The position numbers are program-made. From a virus (taxonomy: Duplodnaviria; Heunggongvirae; Uroviricota; Caudoviricetes), in IMG/VR virus record IMGVR_UViG_2574179916_000005, positions 1 to 11,983 of that record: a stretch of 11,983 bases of DNA; one strand, 5' to 3'. Of the stretch, positions 3,001 to 6,000 are shown one piece after another (the stretch's first letter is position 1; the number at the start of each line of letters is the position of its first letter).

Positions 3001-6000
3001 GCATTAGCACATAAAAGTGGTGATAAAATAAGAGATATTTATAATAGAACTACTTATTTAGAACAACGCAAAATTATGATGCAATGGGTAGGAGATTTTT
3101 TTGATGAGGCGAGAAAAGGGGTAATTAATAGATCCGGTGGTAAGAAAGGTTTGAGAATAGTAAATGGTTGAGGAGTTCAGCAAATGAATACCAATGAAGA
3201 TATTTTATTTACTAAAGACGTAATGAAAATTTTGCGCTATGGGGCAATGAGCGCATTCATCAATTTCTGGAAAGATGAAAATAATGGTTTTCCTCAACCG
3301 TTCAGAATTGGGCGGCGGCATACCTGGCACCGTAGAGATGTAGAGGCATGGTTAGATAAACAACGAGAACAGGCCAATCCCCACTAATAATATCTTTCAT
3401 ACCCCGCACGCAATGCGGGGTTTTTTGTATGTGAGGTAAAAACGATGAATAAAAATATTGCCGTGACGGGCAAGGGGTACGCTCGTTCAGTAAAAAAATT
3501 CTGCGATATTCGTGATCTTGTCGTTCTGCGCTTTAATGGCGTGGATGTTCGTGTGGTGTATCTGAACGGCGATCCGTGGTTTGTTGCAAACGATGTTTGT
3601 GCTGCGCTGGAACTAACCAATTCGCGTACGGCGTTGCAGATGCTTGATGATGATGAAAAGGGAGTAAATTTAACTTACACCCCAGGAGGAAATCAGAATA
3701 TGAGCATTATCTCTGGGTCAGGTTTCTACAAACTAATAGCCCGCAGCCGCAAAGCAACGACGCCTGGCACATTTGCTCATCGTTTCAGTAACTGGGTATT
3801 CAGAAATGTGATACCGGGTATCAGAGAAACAGGGGCTTATGGTATCCCATGGGGTGCATTACAGGATTTTTCCCGCCGTAAAGAGCAATATCAAATAAGT
3901 GCCAGCGAGAAGGGGAGGGGGCTACAGGCATGTAAGCGCAAAAAGCGTGAGCTGGAGGAAGAAGAAAAAAGGCTGATACGTGAATATCAGCCTGAGTTTT
4001 ACTTTGGTAACCGCATTCAGTGACAAAACAAAGGCGACCGGGGGCGGTCGCCAATGGGAAAGCACTAAACATAAGCACGGGGATGATAGCCGCTATCAGG
4101 CTGGTGGGCAATGCAATCAGTCTGGTTCAGTTCGTTGCCATACCTGCAATGAGCGCGTTTCCCTGTACTCTTTAAGGAATTGCTCAAGGGCAAAAGCACA
4201 TGGCGCGAATCTTTCTGATTCATGCTCTATCTTTCTGCGCCGTCTTTTCCGTGCCGGTGATAATGTTTTGGTCAATTCTTTATCGGTCATTGTGTTGTCC
4301 TGCATAGCAATGCGCCGTAATACCTTACACCACGGCGCTGATGGTGATTACTCTGGTTCTTTGGCCTTGCGGCGCTGGCGGCGTTTGATCTCGCCTTCAA
4401 GTGCCGAAACGATAAATTGCCCAGTGCTTTCGCCTTCTTCCTTTAAATTTTCTACAGCGTCAGCTATTGCATGGGGGACTCGTGCCTCAAGTTTTTTGGA
4501 TTTTCCATTAACTGCTTTCGTTGCCATATCTGATTTCCTTGTTATTAGGTGGCTGACAGTATACACACAAGAAAATGGAAAAACACTATTGACGTGGCTG
4601 ACACCTGTTACTAGTATAGTGGCTGACACCTTTATTGAGGTAATCGATGAAAAGACAAAGCCCGCAGGTGCTACCAACACCAACGGGCTTCTAACCACCA
4701 ACGATAGAAAGAGTATCGAGGTAGCTATGAGAAATCATACCACACACCCGCAAGGGCGGGACTCGCACAACCTGAATAAATACATCTGGCGTTTTATCGC
4801 CCTGAGCACGGCACAACCGCGCGTGATTACCATTGAGGCCACTAGCGAACAGGAAGCACGCCAGCAATCCCCGGCTGGCTGCGTGATGGTATTCGCCGCC
4901 CGTATTCGTCAGGGGGTACGCCATGTGCAATAACACCCGTCCGGACGCAGCCGCCGAAGCAATCAAAACACTGATTGATGCGCTGATTGATATTTCTGTT
5001 ATCGCGGACAGGGCGCATAAGCACGCTACCAGTGAAACAGAATATACCAGGGCTTTCGTTCCTCGCTCACTGGTTGCTATGCGGATTATCGCTGATATGG
5101 CACTGAATGAGGCCAGCAAAATTATCATGGCTGATATGGAGGTGGTGAGCCATGCATAATCATGAAACGCACTTACCTGTAGTGCTGAATGTGCCATCAG
5201 ATTATACGGGTCGCGTACTGGTGTATCTGGGAAAAGGCCGGGTTAGATGCCAGTGCCGTTTAATGGAAAACGAATTTATCAGCACTCTTGCGGGATTTTC
5301 TGAAATGCTCACTAAATCGGGTGTTAGTGCAGACCAGTTATGCGGGGGCGATTATGCGAAATAAACGTGATATTGAAGACCTGGCATTTGAAGCCCTGCA
5401 CTCTGCGAAAAAGATCAGGGAAGTCGTCAATATGTGGATGAACAGCCTTAGCACCGATAAATCCGATAGCAGAGAAGAAATTCTTATTTCTTTGTTGTTA
5501 GACCTGGCAAATACACAGGTTTCTCTGACATCTGATATTGAACTCGCCGCTAAAAAGCAGCCTCTGGAGTAAAAACCATGAAAAAGAAAAATTCTGGCAT
5601 TACTGCCAGCGGCCTCTCTCGGCCTGAAATCCGCCCAGGCGATATTTTCCGGGATAACTACGGCGGCACGGTAACGATTAAAAGCGTGGCGGGACGGTGC
5701 GTTACTTACCGCCGTGATGGGTACGGCTATGACTGCGTGATGCCTGTTTATCAGTTCCGGCGTGATTTTTCACTGATACAGGCCACACCACGCAAACAGC
5801 CCACCAGCAACGCCAGGGCACGGGCGAACATTCAGAAAATGAAAAACATGATTAACGCATTCAGGGGCAAAAAATGAAACTGGCACCGAACTTAAAAAAA
5901 CAGCCACACGACAAAATGACCGAAGTCATTATTTTTGCGGGTAGTGATGCCTGGGCGCACGCGAAACAATGGCAGGAGCAGGACGGGCGACTTGCTGGCG

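Follow-up and report, generated by a model that had tools for sequence, protein, structure and literature searches.

The stretch of DNA analysed here (the window, 11,983 nucleotides) covers positions 1 to 11,983 of the IMG/VR virus record IMGVR_UViG_2574179916_000005 (Caudoviricetes) and, as read from its sequence, is Escherichia coli DNA in which an island of ~10 kb interrupts the packaging region of a lambdoid (Qin-like) prophage. Between the integration and replication genes of this island lies a small minus-strand gene for a 59-residue protein of ribbon-helix-helix (RHH) type, which faces a rightward operon that begins with an Icd-like gene. This protein is likely to be an autoregulated repressor of the Icd-like/replication operon, acting at three operators (O1, O2 and O3) and serving the satellite as its immunity or maintenance repressor. 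The evidence is chiefly comparative: among related loci, the operator sequence changes together with the beta-strand of the protein, while the operators keep their positions over two divergent promoters. These patterns suggest that Gram-negative satellites possess a repressor ("immunity") system that has not yet been described. No paper describing the module was found in full-text searches that join phage-inducible chromosomal islands (PICIs) or satellites with RHH, CopG, YlcI/YnfO or DUF3950; these gave only a 2026 survey, in which YlcI/YnfO appears as a "prophage-associated protein" in capsid-forming PICIs (cf-PICIs).

A divergent RHH gene and its probable operator boxes

The RHH gene occupies 4348-4527 on the minus strand (59 codons and a stop), with its ATG at the complement of 4525-4527 and its stop at 4348-4350. 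A Shine-Dalgarno sequence, AGGA at 4536..4539 on the same strand, stands 8 nt before the ATG, and the corresponding CTCC block of the plus strand is kept in relatives. The product belongs to the YlcI/YnfO family (NCBIfam NF041551), which it matches over all 42 positions of the model with a score of 61.9 bits (cut-off 30; E = 4.2e-17). Its predicted fold, a beta-alpha-alpha unit of ~45 residues, finds matches to RHH proteins only, in agreement with the first-pass annotation of this DNA, which had called the divergent regulator an RHH protein; searches of Pfam and NCBIfam gave no hit to a helix-turn-helix (HTH) family. In a MAFFT alignment with Arc, the R-x-P motif and the G-x-S turn coincide, and residues 12, 14 and 16 fall on Arc Q9, N11 and R13. 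The 59-aa protein is probably an RHH DNA-binding protein, with binding itself predicted. Neither the protein nor the DNA found a homologue among deposited phage genomes. Near its C-terminal end, the segment E-I-K-R-R-Q-R (residues 46-52; 4372-4392, minus strand) is invariant or nearly so across the family and lies in a predicted helix that reaches residue 56; it might contact the DNA backbone, take part in oligomerisation or form a partner site.

The 10-bp box GTGGCTGACA occurs on the plus strand in exactly three exact copies, at 4549-4558, 4594-4603 and 4619-4628. For the window, 0.01 exact copies are expected, and three were reached in 0 of 200 shuffles. Box 1 stands 21 nt upstream of the RHH start codon. 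The other two are set into a promoter-like site, TTGACG-17-TAGTAT at 4589-4617, which was found by a promoter scan and is referred to here as P_R (-35 at 4589..4594 and -10 at 4612..4617, plus strand). Box 2, whose first base is also the last of the -35, occupies the spacer, and box 3 begins 2 nt past the -10 and covers the start expected near 4624. The first-pass annotation had given the same three coordinates and had placed one box just upstream of the RHH gene, one in the promoter spacer and one at the predicted start, all of which is confirmed. Boxes 2 and 3 are 25 bp apart and share 13 identical bases (GTGGCTGACACCT) within a 22-nt repeat.

Comparison with relatives indicates that the functional unit is 11 bp, of the form GTG-N5-CAC. 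In the window, the operators defined in this way are O1 (GTGGCTGACAG; 4549..4559), O2 (GTGGCTGACAC(CT); 4594..4606) and O3 (GTGGCTGACAC(CT); 4619..4631). The G at the end of O1 is due to its overlap with a conserved minus-strand TATACT (4558..4563), the putative -10 of a leftward promoter, P_L, whose expected start at ~4551 O1 also overlaps. GTGN5CAC has no further occurrence in the 12-kb window, and the targets of the protein in the element therefore appear to be limited to the operator region. Transcripts from P_L may end at an intrinsic terminator called by a terminator scan at 4033..4052 (minus strand). This terminator is one-directional, with a T-run on the minus strand only and AATGGGAAAG after the stem on the plus strand.

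The first gene of the rightward operon, at 4727..4933 on the plus strand, encodes an Icd-like protein of 68 residues (NCBIfam NF033153, 1.5e-19), which is annotated as such by RefSeq in relatives. Its only match among deposited phage genomes is in one 16.5-kb element. Replication genes follow in the same operon, as the first-pass annotation had held in describing the controlled operon as a replication operon. The leader of the P_R transcript contains two inverted repeats, hairpin A (4658..4690) and hairpin B (4702..4718, CGATA...TATCG), the latter adjoining the Shine-Dalgarno sequence of the Icd-like gene (GAGG, 4718-4721). In an RNAalifold consensus of 30 sequences, compensatory changes are found at 14 of the 15 pairs of hairpins A and B, and a conserved UCUAACCAC comes after them; the hairpins have no Rfam match. 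In the window, the loop of hairpin A seems convincingly able to pair with the Shine-Dalgarno region of the Icd-like gene (GCUACC with GGUAGC), in the manner of c4/icd; the idea was dropped, complementarity over 66 leaders being 5.55 within loci and 5.59 between them.

Co-variation of operator and beta-strand among related loci

To collect related loci, one genome per species was scanned with a pattern and with tblastn, which yielded 74 loci from Pectobacterium, Yersinia, Xenorhabdus, Proteus, Serratia, Enterobacter, Klebsiella and ~20 further genera, and four E. coli loci were added. Sites and beta-strands were counted over 71 distinct homologous regions, and column conservation was measured over 62 distinct regions. 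The module is present in more than 25 genera of Enterobacterales, where it stands between the integration and replication zones of satellites. In nearly all loci the RHH gene is flanked on one side by int and alpA and, across from them, by a replicase of the primase, DUF927 or RepA type. The specificity class of the window alone is found in 134 of 5,426 complete E. coli genomes, in which RefSeq leaves the operator region unannotated. A related region is present in 1,654 E. coli genomes.

The positions of the control elements are strongly conserved. From the start codon and Shine-Dalgarno sequence of the RHH gene on, the control region aligns without gaps over its first 80 nt. O1 takes the form GGTG-N5-CAG at an offset of 24 nt from the RHH start in all loci; it is overlapped by AGTATA (TATACT on the RHH strand), which is followed by an A-rich tract and then by TTGA, the beginning of the P_R -35, which is invariant in 62 of 62 regions. 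The six columns of TATACT are kept in 55 to 62 of the 62, and this conservation suggests that P_L is the promoter of the RHH gene. O2 reads GTG-N5-CAC at offset 69, and the -10 of P_R appears at the equivalent place as TATAGT, TATACT or TAAGGT. O3 follows 22-35 nt past O2; some classes keep the orientation of O2, and several others have O3 inverted. That an inverted O3 still matches O2 speaks for a protein site over an RNA or promoter element.

Within a locus the three sites resemble one another, and between loci they do so according to the protein. The O2 11-mer recurs in its own O3 zone with at most one mismatch in 64 of the 71 regions, and O1 is within two mismatches of its own O2 in 60 of 71. 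When O2 of one region is compared with the O3 zone of another, the two match in 90% of cases if the beta-strand peptide is the same and in 3.9% if it is different. Of the three sites, O1 is consistently the one that matches least well: the TATACT hexamer forces a G at its end, and it often has one extra central mismatch. This arrangement would be expected for a site that is filled last.

The outer GTG and CAC triplets are conserved, whereas the five central bases vary and fall into ~20 classes, each tied to one beta-strand peptide. For example, KS(K/R)KLEARVP accompanies GTGGCTGACAC, KSQ(A/S)LK(A/S)RVP accompanies GTGG(G/A)CCACAC, KSKRFDVRVP accompanies GTGTCCGACAC, KSQQLNARFP accompanies GTGCGATTCAC, KSLQVSVRLP accompanies GTGGTGTTCAC and KSQMTT(V/I)RIP accompanies GTGTATTTCAC; these pairs are a selection, and further classes show the same pattern. 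The box centre is predicted best by residue 14, which is constant within each class (2.87 bits, 70% of class entropy); residues 12 and 13 come next. N7, S10 and R16 are invariant, as are the outer triplets. Taken together, this is indirect evidence for a dimer whose paired beta-strands would read bases in the major groove. The proposal of the first-pass annotation that the boxes serve the RHH protein is supported by this joint change of box and beta-strand over fixed positions.

Pairs of loci illustrate how closely the two change together. The window and several Xenorhabdus loci have boxes and beta-strand in common, and the rest of the region has diverged. In contrast, the window and the E. 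coli locus L002 have near-identical leaders and Icd-like proteins identical at 61 of 66 residues, and differ in beta-strand (A12/K14 in the L002-type protein and K12/E14 in the window protein) and boxes (GTGGGCCACAC in L002-type loci and GTGGCTGACAC in window-type loci). A natural recombinant protein, P0021, which joins a window-type N-terminal half to an L002-type C-terminal half, is accompanied by window-type boxes, a weak test because the N-terminal coding half physically adjoins the operators.

The boxes also recombine with one another. Two loci, in Xenorhabdus japonica (L018) and X. indica (L077), have O1 fused to the O3 flank, with both promoters deleted, and in E. coli RM9088 (L003) an extra 23-bp unit at 3265-3340 brings the number of boxes to four. 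Some genomes carry several RHH/operator modules: X. innexi has four loci in four classes (L016, L020, L031 and L063), and further cases are X. mauleonii, Pectobacterium carotovorum, P. brasiliense, P. versatile and Tenebrionibacter. By tally, the classes differ in 16 of 16 co-resident pairs from nine genomes. This is suggestive of hetero-immunity and is best taken as a lead only, since chance would, by a rough estimate from class frequencies, produce it ~18% of the time.

Competing explanations and known systems

Among the alternatives to a satellite repressor, the one that survives best is nevertheless unlikely. It holds that the RHH protein is a local damper of the Cro or Arc kind, which limits the toxic Icd-like gene and its own synthesis, and that the on/off decision belongs entirely to AlpA and the helper. 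P22 Arc is an established example of an RHH protein with a late-damping role, and the first gene behind P_R is indeed an Icd-like cell-division inhibitor; in the island EcCICFT073, moreover, AlpA is both necessary and sufficient for induction (PMC6092414). A damper of this kind is harder to reconcile with a promoter that heads the entire replication module in more than 70 loci, with two strong operators on the promoter core, and with ~20 specificity classes, which resemble immunity types, although none of these points decides between the two roles.

That the boxes are bound by another protein, namely AlpA, the Icd-like protein or a replication initiator using them as origin iterons, is very improbable. 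Repeats in direct orientation close to replication genes may be iterons, AlpA is a regulator that binds DNA, and two PHROGs families of Icd-like proteins (phrog_6196 and phrog_1743) carry the label 'transcriptional repressor'. None of these proteins, however, tracks the box class, and all three were rejected as its reader. Identical boxes stand beside AlpA proteins with little or no detectable mutual similarity; one and the same box class occurs with three replicase families (primase, DUF927 and RepA), instead of the initiator-specific association that iterons would call for; and Icd-like proteins identical at 61 of 66 residues go with different boxes, whereas unrelated ones go with the same boxes. 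The RHH beta-strand alone tracks the box, and the inversion of O3 would be unusual for iterons.

Similarly slight is the chance that the boxes do no more than autoregulate a type II toxin-antitoxin pair in which the RHH protein would be the antitoxin. The partner would be a 62-aa ORF downstream of the RHH gene (4117..4305, minus strand), whose reality is uncertain: it matches phrog_21027 at 3e-16 and has no Pfam or NCBIfam hit. This reading was rejected, as there is no conserved partner ORF. An ORF of at least 45 aa follows the RHH gene in only 27 of 70 relatives, those ORFs are mutually unrelated, and in many loci a partner would not fit, the end of the upstream plus-strand gene being ~40-110 nt away from the RHH stop; the two best operators, furthermore, lie on the opposite promoter. 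Finally, the idea that the repeats are a functionless product of chance or recombination retains next to no probability, for although relatives show the box-to-box deletions and the duplication described above, three copies are found where 0.01 are expected and the positions are kept while the sequence swaps class by class over 71 regions from more than 25 genera, comparative data that exclude it.

Several observations weigh against a repressor role of the RHH protein. An operator of 11 bp is long for a single RHH dimer, and spacings of 25 and 45 bp between the sites are not whole helical turns. The protein matches no Pfam RHH model at E<0.1, finds no solved structure by sequence, and in a profile search of PDB sequences gives chance hits only (E>1). 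Taken alone, the match of P_R to a promoter is at chance level (three found against 1.7 expected), and P_L has no recognisable -35 and was not called by the consensus promoter scan. The loci share descent, so that the co-variation counts overstate the number of independent events. PHROGs gives the Icd-like families the label 'transcriptional repressor', whereas NCBIfam describes the protein as a cell-division inhibitor. Lastly, the study that defined Gram-negative PICIs explains their induction through the activator AlpA, with no repressor needed, and left open whether they have a global repressor (PMC6092414).

Comparison with known regulators places the putative repressor among several partial analogues. 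The P22 immI region provides the RHH repressors Arc and Mnt, which act on the divergent promoters Pant and Pmnt from a 21-bp operator bound by tetramers and have an antirepressor gene as target. P22 thus has two proteins and a single 21-bp operator, whereas the window has one protein and three 11-bp sites 45 and 25 bp apart; here the target is a satellite replication operon, and there is no detectable sequence-family link. The omega protein of pSM19035 binds cooperatively to contiguous 7-bp heptads, in contrast to 11-bp sites with 11-34 bp between them. Lambdoid CI/Cro systems likewise have three graded operators between divergent promoters (OR1-OR3), the weakest over the promoter of the repressor, and many specificity types in elements that are otherwise alike; they differ in having an HTH fold, and the locus studied here has neither a Cro-like second protein nor any sign of RecA-dependent cleavage.

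The first-pass annotation had likened the module to the Stl-type master repressors. In role and position this analogy stands. The genes for Stl/Rpr repressors of staphylococcal pathogenicity islands (SaPIs) and other Gram-positive PICIs lie between the integration and replication modules and are transcribed away from the excision/replication operon, and their products are the presumed keepers of quiescence (PMC6092414). The same divergence from the replication operon, with operators in between, is found in the window and in more than 70 loci. The analogy does not extend to the proteins: Stl is a larger, cI-like HTH protein that is inactivated by a helper-phage protein, whereas the 59-aa protein has an RHH fold, without a ligand-binding domain and without HTH family hits in Pfam or NCBIfam, and nothing indicates de-repression by a helper protein. 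For recognition, P22 Arc/Mnt and omega come closest in mechanism; for architecture, P4 does.

An open frame across the operators and the surrounding island

On the plus strand the operator region is not intergenic, a point that the first-pass annotation had missed. A long open frame of 317 codons (3980..4933) begins within the final part of the Bro-N gene, passes in antisense across the RHH gene and then over O1-O3 and P_R, and finishes with the sequence of the Icd-like protein. The plus-strand frame antisense to the RHH gene is free of stops in 71 of 71 loci, and the same frame is stop-free over the 195-nt operator region in 60 of 71. In the other two plus-strand frames an average of 5.4-5.7 stops occurs, and 1.5% of shuffled sequences have none. 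Synonymous recoding of the RHH genes with local codon usage leads one to expect 22.9 stop-free frames among 66, where 66 are observed. By these comparisons the long frame is kept open by selection. Its first ATG overlaps the end of the preceding plus-strand gene by 1-17 nt in 29 of 70 loci, including overlaps of the ATGA type. In about ten relatives the long frame continues out of frame with the Icd-like gene, which suggests that selection keeps the act of translation and not the product. The phrog_6196 profile extends over 25 codons upstream of the Icd-like ATG in this frame.

This layout recalls satellite P4 as summarised in PMC10111431. According to that summary, the early promoter PLE of P4 lies inside eta, the C-terminal part of eta is kil, eta is coupled to a homologue of alpA that lies upstream, and translation of eta keeps transcripts of the upstream promoter from being terminated. 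Within the limits of the summary, the likeness comprises an early promoter within a longer ORF, the upstream start of this ORF and its coupling to the gene before it, a short product from the internal promoter that is a cell-killing or division-inhibiting peptide, a primase next, and an immunity determinant inside the long ORF. In the window, P_R is internal to the long frame and the Icd-like gene forms its C-terminal part. The P4 immunity factor is described there as a terminating CI RNA, whereas the candidate here is a protein encoded on the opposite strand, at the promoter. Neither the RHH protein nor the Icd-like protein has a match in P4. An immunity RNA of the C4, CI or isrK type was also considered and rejected, since the whole window gave no such Rfam hit at E<=1, the sole hit being a spurious match to a long non-coding RNA. 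The P4-like layout, the lack of a CI-type RNA and the presence of a protein candidate on the other strand together lead us to infer a read-through mode of escape from repression.

In the mechanism that we favour, RHH dimers would recognise GTG-N5-CAC, with the invariant N7, S10 and R16 corresponding to the invariant outer triplets and the variable beta-strand residues 12 and 14, together with residue 13 and the N-terminal arm, to the variable box centre. Dimers bound at O2 in the spacer and at O3 on the start would shut off P_R and hence the rightward operon, which comprises the Icd-like gene, small ORFs, the DUF4222 gene, the RepA-type helicase, the single-stranded DNA-binding protein (SSB) and perhaps the capsid and small-terminase (terS) genes. 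The slightly degenerate O1, over the -10 and start of P_L, would provide negative autoregulation at higher protein concentration, a logic like that of lambda OR1-OR3 or P22 Arc/Mnt. Exit from repression might occur by read-through from upstream, either of an AlpA-activated int-alpA-bro transcript or of a helper late transcript. Such a transcript would be translated along 3980-4933, would cross the RHH gene antisense and would bypass P_R, as PLL/eta transcription does in P4, and the AlpA- or helper-driven transcription could interfere with RHH expression. Binding, the sign of regulation, the two transcription starts and the exit from repression are all put forward here on the strength of sequence comparison.

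A wider view is more tentative, and we regard it as possible but doubtful: Gram-negative PICI and P4-like satellites would share an unnoticed, protein-based immunity, in which the RHH gene lies antisense within a translated read-through ORF, upstream transcription both bypasses P_R and, being carried together with translation across the repressor gene, silences it, and the ~20 classes are hetero-immunity types that let several satellites coexist within a single cell, as the four classes of X. innexi would illustrate.

The island itself is, by its organisation, a helper-embedded PICI (HE-PICI) at the A_Terminase site, co-oriented with the prophage terminase gene, of the type described by Tommasini et al. 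(2023; PMC10111431), a paper that mentions neither the small divergent gene nor the repeats. Pfam and NCBIfam assignments place int-alpA-Bro, replication and late zones inside the terminase gene, and in a RefSeq locus 97.8% identical to the window terL is split by the island. The prophage contributes a DUF1441 small-terminase-like gene (282-776) and the 5' part of terL (776-1771). The island then carries an integrase (1933-3171), an AlpA-like HTH gene (3184-3387) and the Bro-N gene (3445-4023) before the RHH module. Beyond it lie the genes for DUF4222 (5578-5877), a RepA/AAA_25 helicase (5874-7289), SSB (7739-8161), a fusion of ClpP protease and major capsid protein (8792-10705) and a DUF1441 protein of the island's own (10906-11448).

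Some further features of the island were observed in passing. Its DUF1441 protein is 67% identical over 151 residues to that of the helper and, to judge by this resemblance, is a candidate for packaging redirection. A near-identical direct repeat of ~75 bp (GGGTCCTYCCGGTGTAGTGACCTGCCACGGGGCGGGAGCG...GTTTTTGCATTTTCAT) occurs at ~8200-8273, downstream of ssb, and at ~10740-10812, downstream of the capsid gene, and has no match to an Rfam family. Each copy is preceded by a GC-rich inverted repeat and a T-run, which read as terminator-like, and the plus-strand terminator scan calls none. A 68-aa ORF (8586-8792, plus strand; phrog_4934) ends at the start of the capsid-protease fusion gene, and in RefSeq relatives the opposite strand is annotated instead. 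No tRNA genes were found in the window.

For Gram-negative satellites, the module described here provides a concrete repressor candidate with defined operators. Its ~20 natural protein/operator pairs constitute a data set on how the residues of an RHH beta-strand specify bases, and they could serve as orthogonal small repressors. The antisense overlap of the RHH gene with a selected open frame suggests a read-through switch which, if true, would couple the induction of the satellite to helper late transcription in helper-embedded elements.

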